NCBI GenBank assembly: GCA_026415615.1
Contig: JAOAGT010000002.1
Coordinates: 448,545-512,544, forward strand
From: Thermoleophilia bacterium
GTDB lineage: Bacteria; Actinomycetota; Thermoleophilia; RBG-16-64-13
Reading direction: 5' to 3'
Length of the DNA: 64,000 nucleotides
A program made the position numbers and the translations under genes. Every line of letters starts with the position of its first letter. The first letter of the stretch is position 1. Below the pieces are notes generated by a model. That model was given only the letters and a program-made list of their open reading frames with translations. It was not told the origin of the DNA and made no database searches. Shown piece after piece: positions 17,716 through 60,884 of this stretch.

Positions 17716-17724
17716 GGCTGCCTC

Positions 17725-27704: not shown

Positions 27705-27721
27705 GAAGGAGGTCGAAAGCC

Positions 27722-40554: not shown

Positions 40555-40650
40555 GATAGACAGAGGGAAAGAGCTCATCTGGCCGGGTATAAGAGCCCGA
40601 GGGAGGTTTGAAAAGAAAGGGCGCTGCGTAGCCAAGAGAGCGGCGCCGGC

Positions 40651-40690
40651 AAAGAGGAGCGGCCCGCCGATGGCGGGCCGCTCCTCTTTG
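40651..40690. terminator. bidirectional terminator hairpin
   Basis: AAAGAGGAGCGGCCCGCC-GATG-GGCGGGCCGCTCCTCTTT (18-bp stem with A/T-rich flanks on both strands). Confidence 0.85.
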
Positions 40691-40735: not shown

Positions 40736-41587
40736 CTACTTGCTAAGCACAATGTCGCCCAGGTTGACAGACGTGAAAGTCCTTGCCTCTAGCACCTGGT
40801 CCTTGTAACCAGCCATTGAAACCGTGAGCTTGTACTTGGTATTGGCTGGCAGCCCGTCGAACTCAAAATCGCCGAAGCCGTCGGTGACTTTGGTTTGCTT
40901 GGCGCCAGTCGGATTCCCGTCCACATCAAGCTCCTCAAGCGTCACCGTCGCTCCCTTGGCGCACTCATCGGTGTCGCCAAGGACTACGCACCCGGCTATG
41001 AAGCTCTTGGGCAACCCGATATAGCGGACCTTCTCTTTTAGACCAAATTCGGGATGAAGCACCTCGGTCTGGCTTGAGGCAAGCAGTTTCGAGATGGCGC
41101 TGTTTGGATCATCCAGGTCGCCAAAGACAAGAGCTCCGGTGGGGCATGCCTCCACGCAGCGAGGCTCCTTCCACCCAGCATCCAGAAGGTGGGCACAGAA
41201 CGTGCATTTCTGGGGTAGCTGGGACTCCTCGTTCCAGAAGATCACCCTGTACGGGCAACGGTTAACGAGTTCCTTTTGGCCCTTGGCCTTGACGGGATCA
41301 ATGATCACTATGCCGTCGTCACGCTTGTAGACGGCGCCATCTCGCGAAGCCGCCACACAGGGGGCGTCATCGCAGTGCATGCAAGGGATGGCCGTATAGT
41401 CAACCTTGACCTTGGGGTACTGGCCCCGCTGGGTCTCAATGACGTTCATCCAAGTCTGCCCGGTCAGAGGCTGGGCCGCCGCATACGGGCTGTGATCATT
41501 GCCGCAATGCTCGTCCTTGCAGGCAATGAAGCAGTTGTAGCACCCAATACAGTGGGCGACGTCGATCACCATTCCGTACCTGGTCAT
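40736..41587 (-). CDS. Fe-S subunit of a pyrogallol-transhydroxylase-type molybdoenzyme (BthL-like): 4Fe-4S ferredoxin domains plus a C-terminal beta-sandwich domain
   Basis: 283 aa. CIGCYNCFIACKDEH, CMHCDDAPC and CTFCAHLLDAGWKEPRCVEACP. The C-terminal ~85 aa (GATVTLEELDVDGNPTG..TKVTDGFGDFEFDGLPANTKYKLTVSMAGY) are carboxypeptidase-regulatory-like. RBS GGGAGG lies inside the upstream gene end, with a 1-nt gap. Confidence 0.8.
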   Translation of the reverse strand: MTRYGMVIDVAHCIGCYNCFIACKDEHCGNDHSPYAAAQPLTGQTWMNVIETQRGQYPKVKVDYTAIPCMHCDDAPCVAASRDGAVYKRDDGIVIIDPVKAKGQKELVNRCPYRVIFWNEESQLPQKCTFCAHLLDAGWKEPRCVEACPTGALVFGDLDDPNSAISKLLASSQTEVLHPEFGLKEKVRYIGLPKSFIAGCVVLGDTDECAKGATVTLEELDVDGNPTGAKQTKVTDGFGDFEFDGLPANTKYKLTVSMAGYKDQVLEARTFTSVNLGDIVLSK

Positions 41588-41588
41588 C

Positions 41589-44093
41589 TTAGGCCTCCCA
41601 TCTGGTTATCTCGATCAAGCACGAGTTGGGTGCCATGCCCGGTGCATTCTTAGAGAGCAGTCTCGCCGGCGTGAGCAGGTTGACGCATCCGCCTCTGTCA
41701 ATGGCGCCAGGCTTACCGGGCTCCAGCGGGTCGTACTTGGCCGATCCTTCATATGAGTGAACAACGCCAGGCCGAACTCTCTCGGTAACTTCGGCGGCGC
41801 ACAGCACCGCAGCGCGGTCGTTAAACAGCTTCACGATGTCACCGTTCTTGATGCCTCTGGCCTCAGCGTCCCGCGGATGGATGCGCACGATCCAGTAGTC
41901 GTAGCCGTTCTTGCGCATCCGGTGGATGGGGATCTCTGACAGCCACGGCACATGGGTGTCGTGGTGAGTATGGAAGCTAAACCGCGGATGCGGGGATATG
42001 AGCTGCAACGGGTACTTCTTGGCTAGCTCAGAGGTATGCCCCTCCCAGCTTGGGATGTACTTGGGCATTGGCGCCCGCTCAGTGTCATCCGGGGTATGCG
42101 CCAGCAAGCTTTGCGACACGAACTCGATCTTACCGCTGTAGGTGCCAAGCTCGTGCGCCTTCTCGGTGCCGCGCTTGGGATTGGCAAAGTCAGGCGTGTC
42201 GCAAGGTCTGCCCTCGTAGAACCACCGCAGGGCTGGAGTGGGCTTGTAGTTCTCGATCTGCGGGACCACAAAGTAGCCCTTGCGCTTGAACTCCTCGAAG
42301 GATATGTACTTGGGCAGATCCGAGGCGTAGAACATCTTCTCGATCCACTCCTCGATGGTCTTGCCTTCGGTGTAATCCTCGAGGAAGCCAAGGCGTTCAG
42401 CAAGTCCGCAGAAGATGTCCCAGTCAGAACGTGACTCACCAAGCGGCTCGATGCACTTCTGCTGGTAAATAATGACGCGGTGGTTGCAGCTACCAGAAGC
42501 GTGGAGGGAGTATCCGCCCGAGCTTGCCCACTCGCTAATGTCGTTGCGCTCCAAGTTGGTGCACGCCGGCAGAATGACGTCAGCAAAGCGAGTCTCCGTG
42601 GACCACCAGCAGTCCTGGTTGACCACAAACTCCAACTTCGGGCTCTGATACATCCGGACCCAGCGGTTGGTCTCGGTCATAGTGGCGATGAATGCGCCCC
42701 CATACCGATAGAACATCTTCACCTCAGAGTGTCCCGGCAGCGGGTACACAAATTTGGTGAACTGCTGTTCGAGCGATCCGCCGCAGAAGCCCTCGCCCAT
42801 CCATTCGATGTGCCCATCAAGGATTGCTTCCGGCACAAGCAAGCGGTACACGCGCTGCTTAACCGGGTTAATCGCCTTCTTCTCAGCGATGAGGTTAAAC
42901 CCGCCGCTGGCGTATCCCGGGAAGTCAAGCTCGTAGTTGTACGGCGGCCCGTTAGTGGTGCCCCATATGCTGACTCCGGGCTTGCCCAAGCCTTGCATAG
43001 CTTGCAGGAAGACCAGCATCCGGTCGTGCTCGGTAGCGTAGGCTTGACGGCAGTGACCACCCTCGCCGCCTTTGGTGCCGCCTGCCAGGCAAGTGCGGTT
43101 GGCGGCCCACTCGCGAGCCAACGCAACGATGGTGCGGGCCTCGACTCCGGTGATCTCAGCTGCCCATCTGGGGTCCTTAGGTACGCCGTCTTCTTCGCCG
43201 AGCACATACTTCTTGAACTCATCAAAGCCAATAGTGCGATTGGCGATGTAGTCCTTGTCGTAAGTGCCCTCGGTAAGCCAGACATAGGCGATGCCCAGAG
43301 CCAACGCTCCCGTGGTGCCGGGCCGGTAAGCGATCCACTTATCTCCTACCGCAGCGCCGGTGTAGTTGTAGAACGGGTCGATGATAATCTGCCGAATGCC
43401 CTTTTCTTTGAACCAATAACGCCAGAGTGCGGACTCATTACCCCCGTAGATGCCGTGGGTGGAGTCGGCGTCGTTTCCCCAGTGGATAATGAGCGTGGTA
43501 TGCCTCAGTGTTTCCTCGAGCATGTCGTAATGCTCGGGGTTGCCGAGGCGCCAGTAGAAGCCCCAGGCGTGTGTGGCTCCCCAGTGCCAGCCTTCCCAGC
43601 TGTCTGGGTTGTCCAGGATGTCGGTAAAGCCGAGCATGTTGAAGAAGCGAGCCCACGCCCCGGTGCGATAGCCCAGGTTACCCCAGTTGTGATGCGAGGA
43701 AGCGCGGGACATGATGGCTTCGGGACCATAGGTCTCCCGAATCCGCTTCATCTCATTCGCAACTAGGTCCAGCGCCTCGTCCCAGCTGATCCTCACATAT
43801 CCGGACTTGCCCCGGTTTTGGGGATTGCGCTCACCGTTTGGATCGAAGTCAACCCGCTTCATGGGGTAGAGGATCCGGTCCTCAGAGTAGACGCGGGCTT
43901 TTTCCGTCAAGGTGAAAGGCGCAACACAGGCTTTACGTGGAGGCGTGTACTTCTTGCCTTCAACATCGATTACCCAAGACGGGGCGTCCGTCTCGTCAAA
44001 GACGAGCGGACGCACCCGTACTATCTTTCCATCCTTGACATGGACTCGGATTGGGCCGCCGGCAGTGCAGTTAATAAATGTCTGCTCCGACAT
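41589..44093 (-). CDS. molybdopterin (bis-MGD) large subunit, pyrogallol-phloroglucinol transhydroxylase / resorcinol hydroxylase family (AthL-like)
   Basis: 834 aa. No N-terminal Cys cluster and no twin-arginine leader. Blocks YPMKRVDFDPNGERNPQNRG, SSHHNWGNLGY, DSWEGWHWG, RLGNPEHYD, ILPACTNLERNDIS and SPHPRFSFHTHHD match my recollection of the Pelobacter acidigallici enzyme. Confidence 0.8.
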   Translation of the reverse strand: MSEQTFINCTAGGPIRVHVKDGKIVRVRPLVFDETDAPSWVIDVEGKKYTPPRKACVAPFTLTEKARVYSEDRILYPMKRVDFDPNGERNPQNRGKSGYVRISWDEALDLVANEMKRIRETYGPEAIMSRASSHHNWGNLGYRTGAWARFFNMLGFTDILDNPDSWEGWHWGATHAWGFYWRLGNPEHYDMLEETLRHTTLIIHWGNDADSTHGIYGGNESALWRYWFKEKGIRQIIIDPFYNYTGAAVGDKWIAYRPGTTGALALGIAYVWLTEGTYDKDYIANRTIGFDEFKKYVLGEEDGVPKDPRWAAEITGVEARTIVALAREWAANRTCLAGGTKGGEGGHCRQAYATEHDRMLVFLQAMQGLGKPGVSIWGTTNGPPYNYELDFPGYASGGFNLIAEKKAINPVKQRVYRLLVPEAILDGHIEWMGEGFCGGSLEQQFTKFVYPLPGHSEVKMFYRYGGAFIATMTETNRWVRMYQSPKLEFVVNQDCWWSTETRFADVILPACTNLERNDISEWASSGGYSLHASGSCNHRVIIYQQKCIEPLGESRSDWDIFCGLAERLGFLEDYTEGKTIEEWIEKMFYASDLPKYISFEEFKRKGYFVVPQIENYKPTPALRWFYEGRPCDTPDFANPKRGTEKAHELGTYSGKIEFVSQSLLAHTPDDTERAPMPKYIPSWEGHTSELAKKYPLQLISPHPRFSFHTHHDTHVPWLSEIPIHRMRKNGYDYWIVRIHPRDAEARGIKNGDIVKLFNDRAAVLCAAEVTERVRPGVVHSYEGSAKYDPLEPGKPGAIDRGGCVNLLTPARLLSKNAPGMAPNSCLIEITRWEA

Positions 44094-44107
44094 GCGCTAT
44101 AGCCCTC

Positions 44108-45331
44108 CTAGTCGACTGGTGCTGCGTTCAGCAAGGCCATGTCCGTCGTTGCAAATCCATGCAGGAAGCTGTAGACGTCCCTTAGATGCTTGCTGAAGGG
44201 CACGTCGTCATCAGTTGTACCGTATCCGCCGAAGATGCCGCACGCGTGGTTGACAAACTCCACGCCGATTTGGTCGACAAAGGCCTTGACCAGCATTCCG
44301 ATCTTCGGATTGTAGTCGTGCTTTGTCTGGTACGACCAGGCACCCTTCCAGAGCAGCGCCCGAGCCGCCTCAAGCTTGGCCTGCATGTCGGCGATCTTCA
44401 TGGCGACATGGTGATGCTGAATGATGGGCTTTCCGCCCTGCACCCGCTTCTTAGCGTAGTCCAGAGCCTCTTCATAAATTGCCCTCACCGTGCCCAGGTT
44501 GGCAGCAGCGCCCAGGAGCCCAAACGGCGGTGGAACTCCTTGCGGGGTCTTGGACCAGTCTTTCTGCGGGCCTCCCCACTCGCCTTCGGTTCCCCAAGCC
44601 TCGCCTTCCTTACCTACGAGGTAGCGGGCCGGAATCCGAGCGTTCTCGAAAACTAGCTCAGCGTTGGCAAGCAGCCTCCTACCCAACTTGTTGTGGAACC
44701 GGCCGATCCGCAACCCTGGGGTGTCGTGCGGCACGAGGAAGCAGCTCAGGCTGGTGGAGATGGGGCCCTTCCTGTCGGTACGGGCATACAGGAAATAAAG
44801 CTTGGCGATGCCGCCGCAGGAAATGTAATGCTTAGTGCCGTTAATAATGTATTCGTCGCCTACTCTTTCGGCATAGGTTTGAATTGAGGCTCCCGGCTCG
44901 TCGTAGAGGAAGTGAGAGTCGGTTCCCGCCTCCGGCTCGGACCGCGCCAGACCCAGGAGGAAGGTGTCGTCTTCCAGGAACTTTGGCAACCACTCGTCGC
45001 GCTGTTCAGGTGTGAGCTCCCCGACAAGTCGTGGAGACTCGGTGTAGCAGCCGCGGATGATGGTGGCAAAGCCCTGGTCTGCCACTCCCAGTTCCTCGAG
45101 GACGATGCAGAGAGTAAGGTAATCCGCGCCTCCGCCTCCCCACTTCTCAGGGATGGCAAGAGTACGAAGACCAAGCTGCGAAGCCTTCTTGATCAGGTCC
45201 CACGGGACACAGTCAATCGGGTTCGGCCGCCGGTCGTACTCCATGGCCACGGGCTTCACCTCGTTCTCGGCGAAATCCCGCACCATGTCGCGGATCATCT
45301 GTTGTTCTTCGGTTAGATAAAAATCAACCAT
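44108..45331 (-). CDS. acyl-CoA dehydrogenase-fold flavoprotein, atypical
   Basis: 407 aa, RBS GGAAGGAGGA. N-terminus LTEEQQMIRDMVRDFAENEVKP is classic ACAD. C-terminus RDVYSFLHGFATTD sits where IYEGT (catalytic Glu) is expected. There is a Gly/Trp/Pro-rich insertion in the middle. Confidence 0.8.
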   Translation of the reverse strand: MVDFYLTEEQQMIRDMVRDFAENEVKPVAMEYDRRPNPIDCVPWDLIKKASQLGLRTLAIPEKWGGGGADYLTLCIVLEELGVADQGFATIIRGCYTESPRLVGELTPEQRDEWLPKFLEDDTFLLGLARSEPEAGTDSHFLYDEPGASIQTYAERVGDEYIINGTKHYISCGGIAKLYFLYARTDRKGPISTSLSCFLVPHDTPGLRIGRFHNKLGRRLLANAELVFENARIPARYLVGKEGEAWGTEGEWGGPQKDWSKTPQGVPPPFGLLGAAANLGTVRAIYEEALDYAKKRVQGGKPIIQHHHVAMKIADMQAKLEAARALLWKGAWSYQTKHDYNPKIGMLVKAFVDQIGVEFVNHACGIFGGYGTTDDDVPFSKHLRDVYSFLHGFATTDMALLNAAPVD

Positions 45332-45605
45332 GCAATTCCTATCCTCCTTCCAGCACCGAGAGGCTGCCGCCGACGTTGGCTAGATCACCGGAGGTCCGGT
45401 GGTTGCTGTAGCTGAAGACCAGCCCAGCAACTAGCTCCATCATAGTACTTGTTGTTGCTGCGCGGGCCGTTTTAAGTCAACTTGTCATGACTTGGCCAAA
45501 CTATTACGGGAAGGTATGAATCCGGACCGCTGCCAGAGCTAGACGAATCTGGACTGCCGTCAGCACCAGATCAAGGTGGAATGTTGCCGCCACGAGACAC
45601 TCGGG

Positions 45606-46490
45606 CTAGCCCCGCTGGACAATGGCGCTCTTTATGTGGAGCATTAGGGCGCGGGCCGCTGCCGGGAGGGGCCGGTCGCGGGGATAGATAAGAGTAAGGT
45701 CTCGGTAGAGAGGACGTTCAAACGGGACCACTACCAGATCTTCAGCATTATCTGCGGTGGCAAGCATTTTTGGCATGGGAGCAACCCCAAAACCTTTGCT
45801 TACCAAAGCCTTGATCAGCTCTGGGTAATTGGCACGATAGGAGAAGCGAGGCTCCACGCCTGCTCGCCGCAGGGCGTCGGCTGCAATGTTCCCCGCATTC
45901 ATGGTGGTACGCGGGAGAAGTATCGATTCTCCAGCAAGCATCTTGAGCGGAACGCGGGGGAGGCGAGCCAACCGGTGGTTTCGCGGCACCACAAGCACTA
46001 TTTCTTCTGTAAGAAGATGCTGCGCAGCAGTGCGTGACGAACCCCAGGGAGTTATTACCGCGCAGTCGAGTTCCCCACGAATGACTGCCTCTTCGAGCTG
46101 AGCGTCATCCTTTTCCACGAGGTCTACACTGACATGGGGATAGGCTTCCAAGAACGAAACTAGAATAGGAGTAAGAAGCAGTGCCATGACGTTGCCGACG
46201 GCGCCAAAACGCACCGAACTGGATGTGGCTCCGGCCTGTTCGCGTATGAGAGCGATGGCCTCCTCGGTTCGGGCGACGATTGCTTGGGCCAAGGGCAATA
46301 AGAGCTGGCCGGCTGCGGTGCATTCCACGTGCCGTCCGTATCGCTCAAAGAGCTGAGCTCCCAGCTCACGCTCTAGTCGCGCTATCTGCCTGCTCAGGGT
46401 AGGCTGCGTGGAGTGCATAGCGCGAGCCGCCCGGCTGAAACTTCGGGCTTCGGCTACGGCAAGAAAGGATTTGAACAGCTCCAGGTCCAT
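45606..46490 (-). CDS. LysR family transcriptional regulator
   Basis: 294 aa. FLAVAEARSFSRAARAMHSTQPTLSRQIARLERELGAQLFER. Confidence 0.95.
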   Translation of the reverse strand: MDLELFKSFLAVAEARSFSRAARAMHSTQPTLSRQIARLERELGAQLFERYGRHVECTAAGQLLLPLAQAIVARTEEAIALIREQAGATSSSVRFGAVGNVMALLLTPILVSFLEAYPHVSVDLVEKDDAQLEEAVIRGELDCAVITPWGSSRTAAQHLLTEEIVLVVPRNHRLARLPRVPLKMLAGESILLPRTTMNAGNIAADALRRAGVEPRFSYRANYPELIKALVSKGFGVAPMPKMLATADNAEDLVVVPFERPLYRDLTLIYPRDRPLPAAARALMLHIKSAIVQRG

Positions 46491-46640
46491 CTATGCAATA
46501 TGGTAATACTTCTTGCTAGCCATGAAAAGTTCCATACAAAACTCAACTTGCTGTTGGCATAGGGCTATCATGTATAAAGCCCGTTTCTGCGGGCGGGGGT
46601 CGTTTCCAGGTATGCCTTGAAAAAAAGGAATGGATGACTC

Positions 46641-47417
46641 ATGAACATTGTAGTTTGCGTGAAACAAGTTATCGACACCGAAGCCGAAAACAGGCTCAAC
46701 CCGGAGACGTGGCGCGTAGACCGCAGCGTCAATTGCATTCTCAACCCCTATGACGAGTATGCAGTGGAAGAAGCGCTAAGGCTTCAAGAGGCGCACGGCG
46801 GCCAGGTTACTGTGGTTTGCATGGGACCAGAGAAGGCTGCTGAGGCCGTGCGGAAGGCTCTGGCCATGGGAGCAGACAGCGCCGTGCTGGTGAGCGACGA
46901 AGCTTTGGCCGGTTCCGATGTGCAGGGTACCGCGTATGCGCTGGCGGAAGCTCTCAAGGGGCTAACCTTTGATCTCCTGATTTTCGGCAACCGTTCCACC
47001 GACGGCGAAACAGGGTGCGTACCTGCAGCTGTGGCCGAGCGACTGGGCATTCCGTTCTTGTCTTGCTTGTCCAAGGTCGAGGTCAACGGGAACACCCTAT
47101 CTGTCCATCGGGAAACAGACCAAGGCCATGTTGCGTATGAATGCCCGCTGCCGGCTGCCATTTCGGTGGTCAAGGGAATCAATGAGCCTCGGTATCCAAG
47201 CATCAAGGGCATCATGACCGCAAAGAAAAAGCCGCTCGACGTCAAGAATGTGGCGGCTCTTGGTCTGGACGCTGGCCAAGTAGGGGCTGCCGGGGCAAAG
47301 ACCAAGGTCCTGACAGCAACCGTTCCAGAGCCACGCAAGGCTGGGGTCAAGATTGAGGACGACGGTTCAGGCGGCAAGCGCATAGCTGAGTTCTTGGCTG
47401 GCGCCAAGCTCATCTAG
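46641..47417 (+). CDS. etfB: electron transfer flavoprotein beta subunit
   Basis: 258 aa. MNIVVCVKQV.D.......NPYDEYAVEEALRL. Followed by etfA. Confidence 0.95.
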   Translation: MNIVVCVKQVIDTEAENRLNPETWRVDRSVNCILNPYDEYAVEEALRLQEAHGGQVTVVCMGPEKAAEAVRKALAMGADSAVLVSDEALAGSDVQGTAYALAEALKGLTFDLLIFGNRSTDGETGCVPAAVAERLGIPFLSCLSKVEVNGNTLSVHRETDQGHVAYECPLPAAISVVKGINEPRYPSIKGIMTAKKKPLDVKNVAALGLDAGQVGAAGAKTKVLTATVPEPRKAGVKIEDDGSGGKRIAEFLAGAKLI

Positions 47418-47434
47418 GAAGGGGAGATAGAACC

Positions 47435-48424
47435 GTGAGCAACAAGACTGGGATCCTGGTTGTAGCTGAGCCCGGCCAAGGCCGGCTGGCTAACGTTACT
47501 CTCGAAAGCATTACTCAAGCTCGGGTGCTTGCGGCGTCCCTGGGCGGGCCCGTGAGTGTGGCCGTGATCTCCTCTGAAGCGGCTCCTCTGGTGGCTCAGG
47601 CTGGACGGTTTGGGGCAGACAAAGTCTACGTGGTAGAGAGCCCCGAACTTAGCGTATTCCGGTCCGGCACGTTTGCTGATGCTGCCACGGCGGCGATCAA
47701 AGCGGCAGACCCGGCGGTGGTGCTCTTTTCTAATTCGAACGATGGTCGGGATGTGGCAGCAGCGTGTGCTGCTCGTCTGGGCGTAGGACTCTTGGTGGAC
47801 GTCACCGATTTGCAGGTGAAAGACGGGACGCTTCGAGCTTATCATCCGTGCTTTGGTGGGCGGATGATTGCTGAAAAAGAGGCCACTTCCGTTCCCGTCA
47901 TGGTCACGGTCCGGCCAAGCGCGTTTGCGCGCGAAGAGGCTCCTAAGGAACCCGAGGTTGTCCCGCTTGCTGTTGATTTTGGGCCGACAAGCCTCGCTGC
48001 AAAGATAGTGGATGTGGTCACCGAGAGTCTCGGGGAAATTGCCCTCGAGGAGGCTTCGGTCATCGTAGCCGGTGGACGCGGAGTGGGAAGCGCAGAGGGA
48101 TTTGGCGTCTTGCGCGAATTGGCCAAAGAGCTGGGGGCTGCGGTGGCAGCGAGCCGAGCTGTGGTGGATCTCGGTTGGATGCCTCACCAGAGCCAGGTTG
48201 GCCAGACGGGCAAGACCGTTTCGCCGCAGCTTTATATTGCCTGCGGGATTTCCGGGTCCATCCAGCACCGAGCTGGTATGCAGACTTCCAAATGCATCGT
48301 GGCCATCAACAAAGACCCCGAGGCGCCCATCTTTTCCATTGCCGACTTTGGCGTGGTGGGAGATCTCTTTGCTGTCGTGCCGGCGCTGACCGAGGAAATT
48401 CGTCGTCGCAAAGCGGGAGCCTAA
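47435..48424 (+). CDS. etfA: electron transfer flavoprotein alpha subunit
   Basis: 329 aa, GTG start after GGAAGGGGAG. C-terminal FAD site [19 protein letters not shown]. Confidence 0.95.
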
Positions 48425-48488
48425 AGCAATGTGCGCGAAAGCCCTCGCAGCGGTTAAGGTTTGGTCCTTAGAGTAGGAGGGTGCGCCG

Positions 48489-50180
48489 ATGACTCAAGAA
48501 CGAGAGGTAATGGAGGTCGATGTCCTCTATGTGGGCGGAGGCGTTGCCTCTCTAAGTAGCGCTCTTCACCTGTCAAATCTTATTAATGCTCACAACGCCA
48601 AGGGCGAGGGCAAGAAGCTTGATGAGGTTATGGTAGCGGTCCTCGAGAAGGGGGCCTACTTTGGAGCTCACGGCATTTCCGGAGCAGTGATGGCTCCTGG
48701 CCCGCTTAAAGAGCTGATACCCGACTACTTAGACAAAGGCGCCCCCATTGAGGGAGAGGTAACAAAAGAATCCATCTACCTTCTGACCGAGCGGGGCAAG
48801 ATTAAGTCTCCCATTACTCCTCCTCCACTTAATAACCACGGCAACGTCGTCATATCCATGGCGAAGATGAATCAATGGCTGGCTGGCCTAGTGGAGGAGA
48901 ACGGCGTTTACATGTTCCCCAGCTTTGCTGGAGTTGAGCTTCTCTACGACGGGGACAGGGTCATTGGAGTTCGCACTGGAGACAAGGGAGTTGGCCCCGA
49001 CGGGCAAAAGAAGCCCAACTATGAACCGGGAGCCGACGTCATCGCCCGGGTGGTCGTGTTAGGCGAGGGTTCGCGTGGAAGCTTGACCAAAGAGGTCATA
49101 AAGCGTTTCGGGCTTGATCGCGGCAAGAACCCGCCAGGATTTGAGGTTGGTGTAAAAGAGGTTTGGGAGATACCTGCTGGTCGTATCGAGCCTGGCGAAG
49201 TAATCCACACCATGGGGTATCCGCTCAAGAGCGATACTTTTGGCGGGGGCTTCATCTACGGTATGAAAGACAATCTGGTGTGCCTCGGCCATCTCACCAG
49301 TCTGGATTATTCAGATCCTTTCATTGATCCCCACCGCGAGTTCCAGCGTTTTAAGCTTCATCCTTTGGTGAGAGGACTACTGGAGGGCGGCAAGCTTGTC
49401 CAGTACGGGGCCAAGACTGCGCCAGTGGGTGGATATTACTCGATTCCCAAGCTCACCTTCCCTGGCGGTTTGCTAATTGGTGACGGCGCCAACCTCTTCA
49501 ACGCCCAGAAAATCAAAGGCGTGGATATAGCTATGCGGTCAGGAATGCTGGCTGCAGAGGTTATTTTCGCTGCACTGGTTAACGACGATTTTTCTGAGTC
49601 CCGCCTTGCGGCGTACGAGCAGGCCATGGCTGAGACCAAGGAAATGAAGGACCTGTACAAGGTGCGGAATTTCCATCAAGCCATGACGCGCGGGCTGTAT
49701 TTGGGCCTGCTTACCGCGGCTGCTCAGTATGTTCTGGGAGGGCGAGTACTTAAGAACAGGTTGCCTGCTACTCCGGATCATACCCACCTGAAAACTGTCG
49801 CGGAGAAGTACGGCACAACTACCCCGAGCCCCGAGGCGGTGCGCGACTTCAAGTATGACGGCAAGCTCACTTTTGACAAAGAGACAGACGTTTACTACTC
49901 GGGAACGGTTCACGAAGAAGCTCAGCCCTCTCATCTCAAGATAAAGAGCTTGGACATTTGCTACGGGGAGTGCGCTACACGTTATCAATATCCTTGCGTC
50001 AGGTTCTGTCCAGCCGGGGTCTATGAGATTGAGGTGGACGAGTCTACCGGGCAGAAGTCGCTCAAGATTAACTTCTCAAACTGCGTTCATTGCAAGACGT
50101 GTGATGTGAAGGATCCTTTCGAGAACATCCAATGGGTGCCCCCGGAAGGAGGAGGAGGTCCCAAGTACACAGTCGTGTAG
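48489..50180 (+). CDS. electron transfer flavoprotein:quinone oxidoreductase (ETF dehydrogenase, FixC-FixX fused type)
   Basis: 563 aa. VLYVGGGVASLSSA FAD fold. C-terminal ferredoxin-like CPAGVYE...CVHCKTCD...I.W..PEGG.GP.Y. Confidence 0.9.
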   Translation: MTQEREVMEVDVLYVGGGVASLSSALHLSNLINAHNAKGEGKKLDEVMVAVLEKGAYFGAHGISGAVMAPGPLKELIPDYLDKGAPIEGEVTKESIYLLTERGKIKSPITPPPLNNHGNVVISMAKMNQWLAGLVEENGVYMFPSFAGVELLYDGDRVIGVRTGDKGVGPDGQKKPNYEPGADVIARVVVLGEGSRGSLTKEVIKRFGLDRGKNPPGFEVGVKEVWEIPAGRIEPGEVIHTMGYPLKSDTFGGGFIYGMKDNLVCLGHLTSLDYSDPFIDPHREFQRFKLHPLVRGLLEGGKLVQYGAKTAPVGGYYSIPKLTFPGGLLIGDGANLFNAQKIKGVDIAMRSGMLAAEVIFAALVNDDFSESRLAAYEQAMAETKEMKDLYKVRNFHQAMTRGLYLGLLTAAAQYVLGGRVLKNRLPATPDHTHLKTVAEKYGTTTPSPEAVRDFKYDGKLTFDKETDVYYSGTVHEEAQPSHLKIKSLDICYGECATRYQYPCVRFCPAGVYEIEVDESTGQKSLKINFSNCVHCKTCDVKDPFENIQWVPPEGGGGPKYTVV

Positions 50181-50224
50181 TGCTGTTGGACGGTCAAATC
50201 AACAAGAAGTAAAGGAGTGGTCAG

Positions 50225-50680
50225 ATGGCACGGCCCGAAGAACAGAAAATTGTGGAGATTTTTAAGGCCGCTAAGACCGGCGAAGATATTCTCGCAGCGT
50301 GGGCTGCTCAGCGGCCAGGGTACAAGCCCAGCGGCGCCGGCGACCCGAGCCTGGATTTCTGGGTAAAGCGCAGACCGGACATGCTGCATACCTTTGCCCA
50401 TAACCAGCTCACCCAGCTGCTTGATCGCGGCATCCTCGATCCGAAGACCCGTTACCTCCTGCTCGTGGGTCTCTACATGATGCAGGGTCATTACGACGGG
50501 GTTCTGCCGCAGGCCTGCAACGCCAAGGCTGCTGGTGCTACCGAGGAAGAGCTCATGGAAGTGGCTTTCTGCGTTTGCTACTCCGTGGGCAAGGCCAAAC
50601 TCCAGGAGACTGGCGCCTGCCTGGACAAGGTTTTCTCCAATCCGATGTTCCAGCAGATCAAGCGGGTCGGCGAGGAGTAA
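50225..50680 (+). CDS. carboxymuconolactone decarboxylase (AhpD-like) family protein
   Basis: 151 aa. LDPKTRYLLLVGLYMMQG......H...A...GATEEELMEV pattern. RBS AAAGGAG. Confidence 0.7.
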   Translation: MARPEEQKIVEIFKAAKTGEDILAAWAAQRPGYKPSGAGDPSLDFWVKRRPDMLHTFAHNQLTQLLDRGILDPKTRYLLLVGLYMMQGHYDGVLPQACNAKAAGATEEELMEVAFCVCYSVGKAKLQETGACLDKVFSNPMFQQIKRVGEE

Positions 50681-50716: not shown

Positions 50717-50754
50717 GCAAGAGGAGGCCCCGTCCATGCGGGGCCTCCTCTTGC
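50717..50754 (+). terminator. terminator hairpin after the etf-ETFQO-CMD operon
   Basis: GCAAGAGGAGGCCCCG-TCCATG-CGGGGCCTCCTCTTGC (16-bp stem). Confidence 0.75.
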
Positions 50755-50836: not shown

Positions 50837-51580
50837 ATGGTTGTGCGGGAAAAGCAAGTAAAGAGCATTTTGTCTCCCTCCAAGGTCTACGACTATGCGC
50901 TTAACCCGTACGTAGGATGTGAGCACGCATGCGCATACTGCTATGCCCGCTTCATGCGCCGGTTTACTGGTCACCGGGAGCCGTGGGGCGAGTTTGTGGA
51001 CGTGAAAACCAATGCGCCAGATTTGCTTCGCCGGGAAATTATGCGAAAGCCTGTGGGTACAGTGTGGGTGAGCGGGGTTTGTGATCCCTATCAGCCGCTT
51101 GAGCGCCAATACAGGCTCACGCGCCAGTGCCTTGAAATCTTGGTGGAGAACCAGTGGCCCATCTGTGTTCAGACTCGGTCTCCTCTCGTGTTGCGAGATC
51201 TGGACGTTTTGCGTCTGGGATCACGGTTGGAGGTCGGTTTTACGATCACCACCGGTGACGACGAAATCAGGCGCCTGTTTGAGCCTCGTGCATCGAGCGT
51301 GCAAGAGCGGCTGGAAGGTCTTGCAGTGCTACACGAGGCGGGAATAAAGACCTTCGCCATGATTGCTCCTATCTTGCCCGGCGCCGAGAAACTGCCCAAG
51401 TTACTCGCTGGCAAGGTAGATCACATTCTTGTGGACCGGCTAAACTACGACTACGGCAATTGGGTCTACAAACAGCACGAACTTGAGTACGCTCGCACAG
51501 ACGCTTACTTCGAGTCCGTTGCCAGAGAACTCGCGGCTGATTGCGCACGACTAGGCATTCCGTGCCGAGTGGTGTTCTAG
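50837..51580 (+). CDS. radical SAM protein (SPL / DNA-photolyase-like subfamily)
   Basis: 247 aa. LNPYVGCEHACAYCYA (CxxxCxxC). Confidence 0.8.
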   Translation: MVVREKQVKSILSPSKVYDYALNPYVGCEHACAYCYARFMRRFTGHREPWGEFVDVKTNAPDLLRREIMRKPVGTVWVSGVCDPYQPLERQYRLTRQCLEILVENQWPICVQTRSPLVLRDLDVLRLGSRLEVGFTITTGDDEIRRLFEPRASSVQERLEGLAVLHEAGIKTFAMIAPILPGAEKLPKLLAGKVDHILVDRLNYDYGNWVYKQHELEYARTDAYFESVARELAADCARLGIPCRVVF

Positions 51581-51643
51581 TCGAACTCTAGCGGCTGTTA
51601 TGATGCCGGAGATGTCGAACAAACTGTGATGGAGAGTGGGGGT

Positions 51644-54199
51644 ATGATCGCGCGCACTACGGCCTGGTCAGCGGGCCCCGGCTGCCACGGAGGGTGCGGG
51701 GTTCTAGCTTATGTTGAGGACGGCAGACTGGTAAAGGTGGAAGGGGATCCGGATCATCCCATCAACCGGGGACGGCTCTGCGCCCGGTGTCTGGCGATGC
51801 CCCAGTACATCTATCACCCGGATCGCCTACGCAGTCCCAGGATTAGAGTTGGCGAGCGCGGCGAGGGAAAGTGGAAAGACATCTCTTGGGAGGAGGCCTT
51901 CGACTATATAGAGGAAAGAATGAAGGCCATCCGAGACAAGCATGGGGCCGAAAGCGTGCTGTTTGCTATGGGCACCGGTCGTGATGTCGGGGCCTGGATC
52001 TGTTTGCTTGCTTACAACTATGGGAGTCCCAACGTAGTTTTTGCCCTATCCGGAATCGGATGCTACACGCCTCGTATTGTGGCCTCCGAGACAGTGTTGG
52101 GTGACTACTGCGTGTTTGACGGTGGGCAGTGGCTTCCGCAGGGACACGATGATCCGGCGTACCGAGTGCCGGAGTGCATCGTTATCTGGGGTTACAACAT
52201 TAACGCCTCTTGCCCAGACAATATCTTTGGTCACTGGGTGACCGATCTCATGAAAAAGGGCTCCAAGCTCATCACGATCGATCCCCGTCTTACCTTTTTT
52301 GCTTCGCGAGCCGACAAGTGGCTTCAGCTTAGGCCTGGTACAGATGGTGCCCTGGCTATGGGCTTTCTCAATGTGATCATCGAAGAAGGACTCTACGACA
52401 AGGAGTTTGTAGAGAAGTGGACAAATGCTCCCCATCTGATCCGGACCGACACAGGTACGCTCTTGCGCGCTTCGCACCTGGTTGCTGATGGCTCGCCTGA
52501 CGACTTTGTGGTCTGGGATCTTGCCGGTGGACGTCCTGCTATATGGGATTCGGCCAACGTGGAGTTTCGCAGTCCTGGGGTGACTCCTGCGTTGGAAGGA
52601 AGCTTTACCGTGCGTCTGGCTGACGGTTCCTCGGTTACCACTGAGACGGTGTGGTCGCTGTTCTGCAGGGAAGTCGCCAAGTATCCTGTGGAGGAGGTTG
52701 CGAGAATCACCTGGCTCAAGCCGGACGATATCAGAGAAGCTGCCCGTCTATATGCCACGAGCAAACCCGCCACCATCCAGTGGGGCGTGGCAATTGATAT
52801 GACTCCGGCCATAACTCCCACCTCAATGGCTATTGCCGACCTTTGGTGCATTACCGGCAACCTTGACGTGCCGGGGGGAAATGTGATTGCGCGCCCGGCT
52901 TTTGGGGCAGTGCCGTACGCTCTACCTGGGCAAAGGGGGCCTATCCGGCTGCCCGATGAAAGCATCGACGAAAAGCGCATAGGTCGAGACCGTTACGGAG
53001 CTCTAAGAGAGTTCATTTGGCGGGCCCACACCGATCTTGCGTTGGAACAGATCTTTACCGGAGATCCGTACCCGATTAAGGGAATGTGGATTCAGTGCTG
53101 CAACTTGGTAGGAGGCATAGGGTACGACCCGGAGCGATGGGTGAGGGCTTTGAAGAAGCTCGACTTTGTCGCTGTGGTGGACACTTTCATGACGCCTACT
53201 GCGGAGCTTGCGGACATCGTGCTACCCGCGGCTACTTTCTTAGAAAAGAACGGAGTGCGCAGCTGGTGGACTCCGCTTGAGGCCATTGTCAAGGTTGTTG
53301 AAGTGGAAGGGTGCAAACCGGACAACGAAATCAACTTTGAGCTTGCCAGGCGCTTTAATCCAAACATGAAGTGGAAGTCCTGCGATGAGCTTCTGGACGA
53401 GATCGTAAGTCCAGCGGGCGTGACCTTCAAAGAGCTTGCCGAGAAGGGCTGGATTCTTCCTCCTGATGGTCATCCGAGCGCTCCCTACCGCCGACACGAG
53501 CGCGGTTTACTTCGGCCCGACGGAAAGCCTGGCTTTAAAACTCCATCGGGCAAGGTAGAGCTCTACTCAGTCTTGCGGGAAAAATGGGGGTTTGAGCCCT
53601 TGCCACACCACGAGGAGCCGCCTTTTAGTCCGGTGGCGAGCCCAGACCTCTTCCAGCGATATCCGCTTATTCTCACCACTGGGAGGCGCTCTCCCGTGTA
53701 CTTTAACTCCGAGCATCGCAATATCCCTTGGCTTCGTGAGGCCGACCCCGACCCAGTGGTTGAACTTCATCCTGAGACTGCCGCTGCCCTAGGCATCGGC
53801 GATGGCGAGTGGGTCTGGATAGAGAACATGTTTGGGCGGTGTCGACTGAAAGCCAAGCTCACGCGTGTAGTGCCGCGCTGGCTAGCCTCTGCTACGCATG
53901 GATGGTGGTACCCAGAGAGAGAAGGTGCCGAGCCGTCGCTGCGGGGAGTTTGGGACTCAAGCACAAATCAACTGCTTCCTATGGGCTATCAGGGCAAAGA
54001 CGGATTGGGGACCCATGCCAAGTGCACCATCTGCCGGGTCTATCGGGCCCACACCGCTCCTCCCAGCGCCTATGCCATGCCAGAGGGCGGTGTCATTGGT
54101 GGAGTACTAAAGCCGAGATCGGTGCCTCATGGTGCGGCTCCAGGCCACGCCTCGGCGCCGGCCGGATCGGCGGGGCGGGAAGACAGAGAGGAGAAGTAA
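51644..54199 (+). CDS. molybdopterin oxidoreductase (DMSO reductase superfamily), cytoplasmic, substrate unknown
   Basis: ATG 51644 after GGAGAGTGGGGG (the ORF-track start at 51626 is also possible). N-terminal Cys pattern GCHGGCG-x26-CARC, then typical MopB blocks (ISWEEAFDYI, GYN, LRPGTDGALA, C-terminal barrel). No twin-arginine signal and no in-frame TGA. Confidence 0.85.
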   Translation: MIARTTAWSAGPGCHGGCGVLAYVEDGRLVKVEGDPDHPINRGRLCARCLAMPQYIYHPDRLRSPRIRVGERGEGKWKDISWEEAFDYIEERMKAIRDKHGAESVLFAMGTGRDVGAWICLLAYNYGSPNVVFALSGIGCYTPRIVASETVLGDYCVFDGGQWLPQGHDDPAYRVPECIVIWGYNINASCPDNIFGHWVTDLMKKGSKLITIDPRLTFFASRADKWLQLRPGTDGALAMGFLNVIIEEGLYDKEFVEKWTNAPHLIRTDTGTLLRASHLVADGSPDDFVVWDLAGGRPAIWDSANVEFRSPGVTPALEGSFTVRLADGSSVTTETVWSLFCREVAKYPVEEVARITWLKPDDIREAARLYATSKPATIQWGVAIDMTPAITPTSMAIADLWCITGNLDVPGGNVIARPAFGAVPYALPGQRGPIRLPDESIDEKRIGRDRYGALREFIWRAHTDLALEQIFTGDPYPIKGMWIQCCNLVGGIGYDPERWVRALKKLDFVAVVDTFMTPTAELADIVLPAATFLEKNGVRSWWTPLEAIVKVVEVEGCKPDNEINFELARRFNPNMKWKSCDELLDEIVSPAGVTFKELAEKGWILPPDGHPSAPYRRHERGLLRPDGKPGFKTPSGKVELYSVLREKWGFEPLPHHEEPPFSPVASPDLFQRYPLILTTGRRSPVYFNSEHRNIPWLREADPDPVVELHPETAAALGIGDGEWVWIENMFGRCRLKAKLTRVVPRWLASATHGWWYPEREGAEPSLRGVWDSSTNQLLPMGYQGKDGLGTHAKCTICRVYRAHTAPPSAYAMPEGGVIGGVLKPRSVPHGAAPGHASAPAGSAGREDREEK

Positions 54200-54200
54200 G

Positions 54201-54617
54201 GTGTCGGATCACAGAGTGAATTCAGACGCCAGCGTCAGCCAGGGTGCACCCACGAGTGGTGAAACAAAGCCGCGTCGTGACAAGCAACCCGAGTATGGCC
54301 TTCTCATTGACTATGAATTCTGCACCGGGTGTTTTGCTTGTCAGGTGGCCTGTCAGCAAGAGCACCGCTGGCCGTCGGGATTGGGAGGCATTCGGGTGCA
54401 GGAGATAGTCCAAAATTTGCCGAATGATCGGGCCTACCTTACATATCTCCCCTTTCCGACCGAGCTCTGTGTCCTGTGTGCTGCACGCACTCGTAAAGGG
54501 CTTCAACCCGCATGCGTCCAGCACTGCATGGCTCGCTGCATGAAATATGGGCGACTGGAGGATCTCGTCAAGGAGATGACGAAGCCGCGGATGGTGTTAT
54601 GGGCGCCTCGCGCGTGA
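54201..54617 (+). CDS. small 4Fe-4S cluster protein (electron-transfer partner of the molybdoenzyme)
   Basis: GTG 54201 one nt after the upstream stop, RBS GAGAGGAGAAG. CTGCFACQVACQQEH and CVLCAARTRKGLQPACVQHCMARC. Confidence 0.75.
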   Translation: MSDHRVNSDASVSQGAPTSGETKPRRDKQPEYGLLIDYEFCTGCFACQVACQQEHRWPSGLGGIRVQEIVQNLPNDRAYLTYLPFPTELCVLCAARTRKGLQPACVQHCMARCMKYGRLEDLVKEMTKPRMVLWAPRA

Positions 54618-59945: not shown

Positions 59946-60884
59946 CTACGAAGTTTTTCTCGCCGGCTGGGCTTGTTTGCGCAGGTAGATGAACCAGTAC
60001 ATGAATCCCACCAAGACGGCCCCGCCAATAATGTTGCCAATTGTTACGGGGATGAGATTGTTCACGAAGAAGTTTCCCCAGGTAAGGTCGGGATAGTCGG
60101 CAGCAGTCTTGCCGATCGCCGTCCAGAAGGACTCCGGGGCAAGTGCTTTGATCGCTAGGCCCAGAGGAATGAAGTACATGTTTGCAATGCTGTGCTCGAA
60201 GCCTGCAGCGACGAAAGCAGTTATGGGCGGAATTATGGCCAATATACGGTCAGTAGTGCTGCGGGCGCTGTAGGTAAGCCAGACTGCCAAGCAGACAAGG
60301 GCATTACACATGATGCCCAAGACAAGAGCTTGGAAGAAATCTAGACCGGACTTGGTGTTGGCTATAGCAAGTGCTGTTGCGCCCACGACTCCGGACCCAA
60401 AGCGGTACTGCCCGGTGGCTAGCATGAGGCCCACGGTAGCCAGGGAGCCCACAAAATTTCCCACCCAGACGACCAGCCAGTTCCACAGTAGTCGCCGGGT
60501 GCTTACTTTTCGCCGGGCCCAAGCCATTACGATCAAATTGTTTCCCGTAAAAAGCTCGGCTCCGCCGATCACTACCAGCATGAGCCCGAGGCTAAAAGCT
60601 AGACCGCCGAGCAGTTTCACTATCCCATATGGTAGGGCGCCAGTAAGCCCGGCGGATCCGTCAACCGAGCGGAAATCCAAAGTGCCTGAGATTACGGTGG
60701 TTGAGAAAACTGCTCCCAGAGCAATAAAGGCGCCAGCTAGCACGGAAAGAGCAAACATCCGGGGGAAATCCATGTTTGCCTTAGACACGCCTATCTGTTC
60801 GGCCTTAGTTGCCATCTGTGAGGGGAGAAGGGCGTCAAAGGAAACGGCACCATGGCCGGGATGATTCCCCTGTGGTCTTCTCAT
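59946..60884 (-). CDS. formate/nitrite transporter (FNT) family channel
   Basis: Six TM helices with FNT blocks (FALSVLAGAFIALG, GAELFTGN, GNFVGS, FEHSIANMY, NLIPVTIGNIIGG). Preferred ATG 60884 overlaps the upstream stop (ATGA). Confidence 0.9.
   Translation of the reverse strand: MRRPQGNHPGHGAVSFDALLPSQMATKAEQIGVSKANMDFPRMFALSVLAGAFIALGAVFSTTVISGTLDFRSVDGSAGLTGALPYGIVKLLGGLAFSLGLMLVVIGGAELFTGNNLIVMAWARRKVSTRRLLWNWLVVWVGNFVGSLATVGLMLATGQYRFGSGVVGATALAIANTKSGLDFFQALVLGIMCNALVCLAVWLTYSARSTTDRILAIIPPITAFVAAGFEHSIANMYFIPLGLAIKALAPESFWTAIGKTAADYPDLTWGNFFVNNLIPVTIGNIIGGAVLVGFMYWFIYLRKQAQPARKTS

Follow-up and report, generated by a model that had tools for sequence, protein, structure and literature searches.

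A pyrogallol transhydroxylase-type molybdoenzyme in a putative LysR regulon with a predicted His-type acyl-CoA dehydrogenase-fold flavoprotein and an electron-transfer chain to quinone

The transhydroxylase that converts pyrogallol to phloroglucinol uses 1,2,3,5-tetrahydroxybenzene as a co-substrate and brings about no net redox change. To our knowledge, the role of its Fe-S subunit has been unexplained since the crystal structure, and the only established route past this enzyme is the NADPH-dependent reductive one. In a stretch of 64,000 nucleotides from a Thermoleophilia bacterium (Actinomycetota; GCA_026415615.1, contig JAOAGT010000002.1, positions 448,545 to 512,544; hereafter the window), the genes of such a molybdoenzyme, AthL/BthL, directly follow a gene for a protein with the acyl-CoA dehydrogenase (ACAD) fold and lie close to genes for an electron-transfer flavoprotein (ETF) and an ETF:quinone oxidoreductase (ETF-QO). 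Why would an enzyme without net redox chemistry be encoded together with a chain to quinone? The answer that we put forward, with a little less than even confidence, is a quinone-linked, oxidative variant of the pyrogallol pathway, in which an eight-gene LysR regulon would couple the cytoplasmic AthL/BthL to a flavoprotein-ETF-quinone chain.

The large subunit (834 aa; 41589-44093, minus strand), predicted to be a cytoplasmic bis-MGD molybdoenzyme of the AthL type, carries the Pfam domains AhtL-like_1st (PF21423, 80 bits), Molybdopterin (PF00384) and Molydop_binding (PF01568). An Fe4S4 domain (PF04879) was not detected by Pfam, there is no N-terminal Cys cluster, and the N-terminus, MSEQTFINCTAGG, contains neither an RR motif nor a twin-arginine leader, in agreement with a first-pass annotation of the same DNA. 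The protein is 100% identical to one encoded in a metagenome-assembled genome of a Thermoleophilia bacterium. The best match in the PDB is the pyrogallol hydroxytransferase of Pelobacter acidigallici (4v4c_A, E=2.1e-277), followed by DMSO and TMAO reductases at about 1e-84, and all the sequence blocks that the first-pass annotation had quoted as shared with P. acidigallici AthL are present in the alignment. The small subunit (283 aa; 40736-41587, minus strand) matches the transhydroxylase beta chain over residues 1-266 (4v4c_B, E=1.9e-62). Its Fer4_11 and CarboxypepD_reg domains correspond to three [4Fe-4S] clusters and a C-terminal beta-sandwich, the BthL-type architecture proposed for it earlier, and all 12 cluster cysteines are conserved in 72 homologues. 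In 4v4c numbering, His144, Tyr152, Arg153, Asp174, Ser175, Tyr404 and Tyr560 are kept in the window AthL; Ser175, which lies in the Mo-ligand region that had been left for alignment, is also conserved, together with His144, Arg153, Asp174 and Tyr404, across all 16 homologues linked to an ACAD gene. We take Ser175 to be the Mo ligand and His144, Arg153, Asp174 and Tyr404 to be substrate-site residues, roles that reportedly go back to Messerschmidt in 2004. Collectively, the Pfam domains, the PDB matches and a neighbor-joining (NJ) tree of 104 AthL homologues (RhL and DbhL not among them) place the predicted AthL/BthL in the pyrogallol-phloroglucinol transhydroxylase family, as had been supposed, rather than among DmsA/PsrA-type reductases. 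A supposed kinship of the AthL family with the catechol dehydroxylases of gut Coriobacteriia does not hold, since a published phylogeny groups those enzymes beside acetylene hydratase, away from transhydroxylase (PMC7028382).

The gene ahead of the molybdoenzyme (44108-45331, minus strand) encodes a predicted flavoprotein of 407 aa with all three ACAD domains of Pfam (Acyl-CoA_dh_N, _M and _1), which aligns end to end with medium-chain acyl-CoA dehydrogenase (MCAD) at about 30% identity. In this alignment, His391 falls on the catalytic Glu376 of MCAD, and a Thr occupies the alternative base position in helix G (IVD-254/LCAD-261). The lack of the catalytic Glu, already seen in the first-pass annotation, is thus a conserved replacement: His is found in 115 of 116 full-length homologues (45-92% identity), and in a metagenome scan the hits of at least 37% identity that reach the position all carry His, except one with Pro, whereas those of 36% or less carry Glu. 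A literature search on the Glu-to-His replacement found no description of a His-type ACAD family. Because the protein lacks the catalytic Glu that defines the family, we did not file it as an acyl-CoA dehydrogenase; by its sequence, the invariant His marks a distinct family of the ACAD superfamily, here called His-ACAD. Superposition of MCAD, SCAD and Bcd on the AlphaFold model (pLDDT 90) gives TM values of 0.84-0.86, and the FAD-site alignment with MCAD (Ser171 for Thr168, Tyr169 for Trp166, Ser/Thr for Thr136/Ser142) is compatible with FAD binding. The protein has two insertions. One, of 8 residues, is family-wide and follows the 'GTD' loop; the other, the Gly/Trp/Pro-rich insertion noted before, comprises 14 residues before helix G and is present only in the clade of at least 66% identity, with a shorter form in the 57-60% clade. 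Both are regions of lower AlphaFold confidence.

Group-D monooxygenases such as DszC and the C2 component of p-hydroxyphenylacetate hydroxylase combine the ACAD fold with a C-terminal active-site His, which the Glu-to-His change resembles. His-ACAD might then be a two-component flavin monooxygenase of the DszC or HpaH-C2 type that hydroxylates a phenol with O2, and weak partial NCBIfam matches to SfnB (62 bits) and DszC (35 bits) point the same way. However, these matches miss the C-terminal domain, while true ACAD models score 150-206 bits, and the top 50 structural matches of the model are all acyl-CoA dehydrogenases, with zero group-D monooxygenases. Furthermore, the eight-gene unit described below contains no flavin reductase gene and is instead co-regulated with ETF and ETF-QO or its EtfD-type substitute, a 59%-identical relative is encoded between the genes of a glycyl-radical enzyme and its activase, which form a strictly anoxic system, and the window itself holds anaerobe markers, namely aldehyde:ferredoxin oxidoreductase and further Mo/Fe-S enzymes. 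We consider an O2-dependent role extremely improbable.

The three minus-strand genes are arranged as one operon. The ACAD/AthL junction reads TAG-14 nt-ATG and the AthL/BthL junction TAA-1 nt-ATG, and GGAGG or GGGAGG precedes all three start codons, so that the open reading frames (ORFs), coordinates, gaps and ribosome-binding sites of the first-pass annotation were all recovered. The operon is closed by a terminator-like hairpin (40650-40690, minus strand) that begins 46 nt past the BthL stop; its GC-rich stem measures 19 bp, against the 18-bp stem at 40651-40690 reported before, and its stability (dG -45.6 kcal/mol, z -6.4) was equalled in 0 of 200 shuffles. Directly upstream on the same strand lies the gene of a LysR-type regulator (45606-46490, minus strand; Pfam HTH_1 and LysR_substrate). 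Divergent from lysR, on the plus strand, are etfB for the small ETF subunit (46641-47417; Pfam ETF), etfA for the large one (47435-48424; Pfam ETF and ETF_alpha), the ETF-QO gene (48489-50180; Pfam ETFQO_UQ-bd and Fer4_ETF_QO) and a gene for a small CMD/AhpD-fold protein of 151 aa (50225-50680). This second operon ends at a terminator-like hairpin (50717-50754, plus strand) formed by a 16-bp perfect inverted repeat with a 6-nt loop. Neither hairpin, as found by folding and inverted-repeat searches, has a long T-tract.

The two operons appear to share an operator. A 39-bp pattern, ATRC-N6-GTMATASTT-N10-ATGAMAAGTT, matches the window at exactly two sites, whereas shuffles predict 0, and it is retained in 11-17 related loci. 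Copy 1 (45479-45517, minus strand) lies upstream of the ACAD gene and is conserved in 17 loci, whose aligned upstream regions share TATRCG-N5-GTMATASTT, ATGAMAAGTT and a -10-like hexamer, TACTAT (45442-45447, minus strand, within the conserved block G..CTA..ATG), as putative promoter of the ACAD operon. Copy 2 (46493-46531, plus strand) is located between the lysR start and etfB and directly adjoins the lysR start codon, as is usual for divergent promoters under LysR control. Upstream of etfB, 13 of the 14 loci aligned retain the operator blocks (in L014 the first box is missing), and a -10-like hexamer of the etf operon promoter, TATCAT (46566-46571, plus strand), lies in a block, ATCAT.TA, conserved in 14 loci. 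In locus L021, the CMD-like gene stands apart from the etf genes and has its own third operator copy in front. Additionally, lysR is conserved at the same position in 12 related loci. Since the putative operator is shared, both divergent operons are predicted to be one LysR regulon, which backs the earlier view of LysR as the likely regulator.

To what extent does this arrangement recur? Our AthL survey, with one genome per species, yielded 80 loci whose proteins are 62-80% identical to that of the window. A His-ACAD gene lies immediately upstream of AthL-BthL in 9 of these 80 genome loci and in 7 contigs (L001, L086-L089, L105 and the window). The 16 ACAD-linked AthLs form one monophyletic clade in the NJ tree, their ACADs are 66-93% identical, and the loci all belong to Actinomycetota (Thermoleophilia, Gaiellales and unclassified members); none of the 60 other species-level AthL loci for which 1.3 kb or more of upstream sequence exists has a His-ACAD there. 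Based on ORF clustering of 15 linked loci, only lysR, His-ACAD, AthL, BthL, etfB, etfA, the CMD-like gene and the ETF acceptor are conserved.

Restriction to one phylum, and absence from the 60 other loci, would also be expected if the transhydroxylase genes had simply landed by the lineage's general beta-oxidation ACAD/ETF cluster and had stayed there with no shared function. Several observations speak against this. One operator stands before both operons and also before the detached CMD gene of L021; the unit is intact while its flanks differ completely and identity among the linked proteins has fallen to 66% for ACAD and 75% for AthL; the exchange of the ETF acceptor has left the unit unbroken; and the ACAD, which lacks the catalytic Glu, is not of a housekeeping type. 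The shared operator, the conserved eight-gene unit and the acceptor swap thus argue that the linkage is functional and not merely inherited, and we judge a purely inherited adjacency very unlikely. The ACAD linkage reported in the first-pass annotation is therefore not chance (16 of 16 in one clade), although it is confined to one actinobacterial lineage; similarly, the pairing of ACAD and Mo enzyme is conserved in the linked clade, but the His-ACAD family is not Mo-specific and occurs in many other contexts. A literature search turned up no transhydroxylase with a reported link to an ACAD or an ETF, which agrees with the earlier remark that no known system is operonic with an ACAD.

The acceptor swap bears on the function of this slot. 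The ETF-QO of the window has UQ-binding and 4Fe-4S domains, and the Pfam scores for ETF and ETF-QO are well above the cut-offs. A canonical ETF-QO is the ETF acceptor in seven loci. In L006, L021, L042 and L088, its place is taken by an EtfD-type protein (about 680 aa), which combines a 4Fe-4S dicluster with two CCG domains; for a NarI-like membrane domain there is just one weak hit, in L021. We take this protein to be an ETF:menaquinone oxidoreductase of the EtfD/EMO type, known from mycobacteria and syntrophs. ETF-QO is thus replaced by a non-homologous protein of the same function, which argues that the job of the slot is ETF-to-quinone transfer. Together with the shared operator, this replacement supports the original proposal that etfBA and ETF-QO provide an electron route to quinone. 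In the PDB, EtfB is matched best by the ETFs of A. fermentans and C. difficile and by the CarD ETF (147-160 bits), compared with 124 bits for Paracoccus and 99 for human, and its FAD-site motif is only partly kept (DGETGCVP versus DGDTAQVGP).

His-ACADs also occur well outside this regulon, at 40-70% identity and without any Mo enzyme. In a Chloroflexota genome (GCA_042582865.1; L002 6937-12396), the gene order is glycyl-radical enzyme, CMD-like protein, His-ACAD (59% identical to the window protein) and glycyl-radical activase. The glycyl-radical enzyme, whose best PDB match is 7e7l, 'hydroxyphenylacetic acid decarboxylase' (600 bits), falls below all NCBIfam equivalog cut-offs, and the locus looks like an uncharacterised glycyl-radical system that uses a flavoprotein/CMD pair; a literature search found no paper joining CMD, ACAD and glycyl radical. 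In L166 (5150-8873) and L090 (2004-6766), the genes encode, in this order, a CMD-like protein, an aldehyde dehydrogenase, a 145-aa ORF with no Pfam match and a 69%-identical His-ACAD, again with no Mo enzyme. Other neighbours comprise TctABC/ABC transporters and DHDPS-like, creatinase/M24, LarA-like, OYE-like, arginase-like and FAD_binding_4/CCG genes. Two distant members are found near ADP-forming CoA ligases, and in L106 a distant His-ACAD lies directly downstream of etfBA. No single context common to the distant members was found beyond the CMD-like gene.

This recurrent neighbour (L002, L004, L005, L090, L098, L100 and L166) encodes a protein of about 150 aa with the conserved motifs KxAKT, SW.Q.PG, DRGILD.KTR and NAKAAG..EE.ME.A and with no conserved CxxC motif. 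Its assignment to the CMD fold comes from structure prediction: the Pfam CMD score of 20.8 bits is below the cut-off of 23, and the AlphaFold model (pLDDT 93) has TTHA0727 as best structural match (TM 0.63/0.74), followed by gamma-CMD (2af7). The family is tiny, with 66 representatives at E up to 1e-3 among 1.84 billion. Judged by these contexts, His-ACAD seems to be an enzyme with its own substrate that has the CMD-like protein and, in some cases at least, ETF as partners. The CMD-like gene is also found beside GlcDEF-like (FAD_binding_4, FAD-oxidase_C, CCG) and TRAP genes, sometimes with no His-ACAD nearby (L001 1003-5857, L167 3458-9444 and the JGI contig of P0332); the window has a GlcDEF-like set at 24901-29212 and TRAP genes at 16399-19736.

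Could the flavoprotein instead serve the molybdoenzyme itself? His-ACAD might have no organic substrate here, dock on BthL and pass electrons from the Fe-S clusters through its FAD to ETF and quinone; the transhydroxylase would then act as a net hydroxylase, or 1,2,3,5-tetrahydroxybenzene would be (re)generated by oxidative hydroxylation of pyrogallol. In all 16 loci the His-ACAD gene is directly ahead of AthL-BthL, the catalytic base is lost, and the regulon has an ETF-to-quinone route with no other obvious ETF reductase. Moreover, all 12 BthL Fe-S cysteines are kept though the classical reaction needs no electron transfer; the work of Messerschmidt in 2004 is said to be the basis for the role of these clusters. 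Yet the cysteines are equally conserved in clades without an ETF link, so that they do not separate the ETF-linked from the reductive-pathway clades, all 12 being kept in each. Members of the His-ACAD family, in which the His is invariant and pocket residues are conserved, are widespread in the absence of a Mo or Fe-S partner, for example beside a glycyl-radical enzyme, an aldehyde dehydrogenase or transporter genes. Across the linked loci, the ACAD-AthL gaps span 14-89 nt versus 1-10 nt for AthL-BthL, which gives no sign of tight coupling, and for a priming role, co-regulation with an ETF/ETF-QO operon would hardly be necessary. A substrate-free redox partner is unlikely in our estimate, and a non-dehydrogenase role of the ACAD, as once suggested, is weakened by its co-regulation with the ETF-to-quinone chain.

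If His-ACAD has a substrate of its own, a CoA thioester deserves consideration. The protein would be an acyl-CoA-type dehydrogenase or reductase acting on a CoA ester formed after ring cleavage or on a phenolic acyl-CoA, with His as base, and would be comparable to the caffeyl-CoA reductase CarC or to the crotonobetainyl-CoA reductase CaiA with FixABCX. The best sequence and structure matches are indeed real acyl-CoA dehydrogenases, the top partial NCBIfam match is the acryloyl-CoA reductase AcrC, the ETF is closest to the ETFs of enoyl-CoA reductase complexes, and the ADP-forming acyl-CoA synthetases near two distant family members would fit. In contrast, the Glu-to-His change is invariant, and the 8- and 14-residue insertions fall in the GTD-loop and pre-helix-G regions, which presumably line the CoA site in MCAD. 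The eight-gene unit encodes neither a CoA ligase or CoA transferase nor a thiolase or hydratase, and no C-C desaturation is required in the phloroglucinol pathway as known (PMC10470551). The lack of a CoA-activating enzyme and of a desaturation step thus favours, though not decisively, a (hydro)aromatic, CoA-independent substrate. The CoA thioester of the first-pass annotation found no supporting evidence in the unit, and we hold this reading to be rather doubtful.

The wider AthL family gives the genomic context of related molybdoenzymes elsewhere. The window AthL belongs to a large clade of the NJ tree whose members are 62-91% identical to it. The P. acidigallici enzyme lies outside this clade and groups with second copies (50-54% identical to the window protein) from genomes with both types, e.g. 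Neomoorella L054. The window sub-clade is sister to Dehalococcoidales loci flanked by phloroglucinol-pathway-type genes. In Desulfobacterota, some Dehalococcoidales, Neomoorella and others, the neighbours of AthL-BthL are SDR, 'cyclase', 3-hydroxyacyl-CoA-dehydrogenase (3HCDH)-like, BKACE, thiolase and TRAP genes, and in at least 24 of the 71 other AthL loci, AthL-BthL adjoins one or more homologues of SDR, cyclase, 3HCDH or BKACE. These neighbours belong to the enzyme families of the phloroglucinol pathway, with PGR, DPGC, TfD and TAL, which was shown in Clostridium scatologenes (PMC10470551). Such neighbours of many clade members argue for the same reaction as that of the P. acidigallici enzyme, and the large clade is very likely a genuine transhydroxylase clade. 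In the ACAD-linked loci, cyclase and BKACE homologues are absent and the SDRs are generic ones only (about 35% identical), and in the loci surveyed from other phyla the orthologous transhydroxylase is never beside a His-ACAD.

Two further groups of AthL-like proteins were observed. In Dehalococcoidales/Dehalococcoidaceae metagenome-assembled genomes (L017, L019-L040 and L043-L048), a large clade of AthL homologues that are 66-72% identical and keep the active-site residues has no adjoining BthL gene; its members lie among housekeeping genes (UvrC, Exo_endo_phos nuclease, HAD, DUF72, GTPase), and a 181-aa ORF downstream is not related to BthL. Beside the regulon in several related genomes, there are very divergent extra AthL/BthL-like pairs of 35-39% identity (L001 17824-21221, L008 15775-22498, L014 56-3393, L016 13363-22501 and L042 13347-16858), in which Tyr152, Arg153 and Tyr560 are lost while His144, Asp174 and Ser175 are kept. 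One such pair in L001 adjoins an OYE-type Fe-S flavoprotein. The divergent pairs are probably other phenol-modifying Mo enzymes.

How, then, might the regulon work as a quinone-linked, oxidative pathway? Because nothing else in the unit could reduce ETF, we infer that His-ACAD is the ETF-reducing dehydrogenase of the regulon, which would then perform a net oxidation with electrons going to menaquinone. His-ACAD would oxidise a (hydro)aromatic polyphenol intermediate, probably not an acyl-CoA, with His391 as base, and EtfAB and then ETF-QO (or EtfD) would carry the two electrons to menaquinone. The CMD-fold protein would be an accessory enzyme, most plausibly a decarboxylase or tautomerase. In this Actinomycetota lineage, the Mo enzyme would accordingly feed, or be fed by, an oxidative respiratory step, whereas in other phyla the same Mo enzyme would stand beside the NADPH-dependent reductive phloroglucinol route.

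The possible order of the steps can be narrowed. Oxidation after phloroglucinol is chemically unlikely because phloroglucinol has no ortho or para diol, and quinol-driven reduction of phloroglucinol is uphill; with both implausible, two orders remain. In the one that we favour, though only tentatively and with the balance clearly against its being right in every step, the CMD-like protein would decarboxylate a trihydroxybenzoate, the Mo enzyme would convert the product, either by transfer of a hydroxyl group or by net hydroxylation, into a tetra- or trihydroxybenzene that has a para-diol, and His-ACAD would finally oxidise this para-diol to a hydroxybenzoquinone. Alternatively, His-ACAD and the CMD-like protein might aromatise and decarboxylate a hydroaromatic acid and so supply pyrogallol to the Mo enzyme.

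A number of points weigh against an oxidative, quinone-linked pathway. Its support comes from sequence and genomic context, and nothing in the sequence indicates the substrate of His-ACAD, whose nearest relatives, at about 30% identity, are genuine acyl-CoA dehydrogenases for short and medium chains and of which two distant members lie near the ADP-forming CoA ligases mentioned above. EtfB resembles bifurcating ETFs more than classical ones, and the direction of electron flow is not proven. The Mo-enzyme active-site residues that were checked are identical to those of the non-redox transhydroxylase, and the sister AthL clade is linked to phloroglucinol-reductase-type genes; the Mo enzyme may simply make phloroglucinol, with a reductive pathway encoded outside the 64-kb window, which is part of a 517-kb contig. 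As the linked loci belong to one phylum, part of the conservation reflects shared ancestry.

Anaerobic breakdown of tannins and flavonoids is funnelled through pyrogallol and phloroglucinol, a process that bears on carbon storage in peat and wetland soils. A transhydroxylase co-regulated with a flavoprotein-ETF-quinone chain points to a respiratory variant of this process in abundant, uncultured soil Actinomycetota, and the regulon offers a testable handle on the purpose of the transhydroxylase Fe-S subunit and on the origin of tetrahydroxybenzene. The strongest version of the oxidative reading, which we think improbable, is that the transhydroxylase-type enzyme is redox-active in vivo, with electrons passing from its Fe-S subunit to His-ACAD (directly or via a shared substrate pool), ETF and menaquinone, so that the eight genes would constitute a complete respiratory pathway. 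If this were true, trihydroxybenzenes would be oxidised through tetrahydroxybenzene and hydroxyquinone by a complete and previously unknown respiratory pathway, an ACAD-fold enzyme would act as a CoA-independent hydroquinone or (hydro)aromatic dehydrogenase, and the cellular origin of the tetrahydroxybenzene co-substrate of transhydroxylases would be revealed. Furthermore, a sizeable, uncharacterised branch of the ACAD superfamily, currently annotated as ordinary acyl-CoA dehydrogenases, is defined here by the Glu-to-His replacement, a family-specific insertion and a small CMD-fold partner. Overall, the locus suggests respiratory degradation of plant polyphenols, not described before, by an uncultured Thermoleophilia actinobacterium of soil or sediment.

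Beyond the regulon, the window has genes for an aldehyde:ferredoxin oxidoreductase and a TRAP transporter as well as URO-D-like, B12-binding and GlcDEF-like genes, a content that suggests an anaerobic or facultative organism handling organic acids and perhaps also methoxylated aromatics. The URO-D-family protein (20837-22093) and the B12-binding-domain protein (60881-61534), encoded 39 kb apart, are typical parts of corrinoid-dependent methyltransferase (O-demethylase) systems, which could yield trihydroxybenzenes from methoxylated aromatics. Genes for aldehyde:ferredoxin oxidoreductase of the tungsten type recur near the regulon or a His-ACAD (window 14473-16320, minus strand; L021 1624-3477; L166 13831-14596), and in L021 this gene sits between the EtfD-type gene and the CMD-like gene. 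A separate unit downstream of the CMD gene, at 50837-54617 on the plus strand, encodes a PA0069-like radical-SAM protein, a bis-MGD enzyme of 857 aa that has an Fe4S4 domain at its N-terminus, and a small 4Fe-4S protein. This second Mo enzyme (51626-54199) was considered as a member of the regulon and rejected: a terminator separates it from the CMD gene, no operator lies in front of it, and it is conserved beside the CMD gene in only 2 of 15 loci (L015 and L086). Its best solved relative is acetylene hydratase (2e7z, 280 bits). Since the catechol dehydroxylases group by acetylene hydratase (PMC7028382), the 857-aa enzyme, and not AthL, is a candidate of that class.

Comparison with characterised systems delimits what is familiar and what is new in this locus. 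Like AthL/BthL of P. acidigallici (4v4c; EC 1.97.1.2), the window proteins would form a two-subunit cytoplasmic bis-MGD enzyme, in which an AthL-type N-terminal domain replaces the Fe-S domain of the large subunit, the Ser Mo ligand and His144, Arg153, Asp174, Tyr404 and Tyr560 are conserved, and the beta subunit combines 12 Cys for three [4Fe-4S] clusters with a C-terminal beta-sandwich. In contrast, the large subunits are only about 57% identical, as read off the alignment; the window protein lacks about 22 residues near positions 408-440; and Trp354, His362 and His171 of P. acidigallici are replaced by Glu, Tyr and Asp. Unlike the P. acidigallici enzyme, the window AthL/BthL is predicted to be cotranscribed with His-ACAD and co-regulated with an ETF-to-quinone chain.

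His-ACAD shares the three-domain fold of MCAD, SCAD and Bcd and, like ACADs, is genomically partnered with EtfAB and an ETF:quinone oxidoreductase of the ETF-QO or EtfD type; EtfAB-EtfD of Mycobacterium tuberculosis and CaiA-FixABCX of E. coli are such ACAD/ETF systems. It differs from ACADs in that the catalytic Glu is replaced by an invariant His with no Glu at the alternative base position, in its family-wide and clade-specific insertions and in its recurrent small CMD-fold partner, and the regulon differs from ACAD systems in that it has no CoA-activating enzyme. The CMD-like protein has the all-helical fold of TTHA0727 and gamma-CMD 2af7, but, unlike CMD/AhpD proteins, it is below threshold in Pfam, has no AhpD CxxC and carries extra N-terminal helices.

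At the level of pathways, two comparisons stand out. In the resorcinol and alpha-resorcylate routes of Azoarcus anaerobius and Thauera aromatica AR-1, which are oxidative, an RhLS or DbhLS hydroxylase, a decarboxylation and a hydroxyhydroquinone dehydrogenase act together; the denitrifier papers behind this analogy are said to be those of Darley in 2007 and Molina-Fuentes in 2015. The proposed pathway would resemble these routes in its AthL/BthL-family Mo enzyme, its decarboxylation, its hydroquinone-type dehydrogenase and its delivery of electrons to the respiratory chain. The dehydrogenase of the Azoarcus and Thauera routes is a membrane enzyme that is not known to be related to ACADs or to involve an ETF. 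The window enzyme is nested among transhydroxylases tied to a reductive pathway. The families of the C. scatologenes pathway form the gene context of the orthologous transhydroxylase in other phyla; unlike the C. scatologenes cluster, the Actinomycetota loci carry His-ACAD, the CMD-like protein, EtfAB and ETF-QO or EtfD instead.

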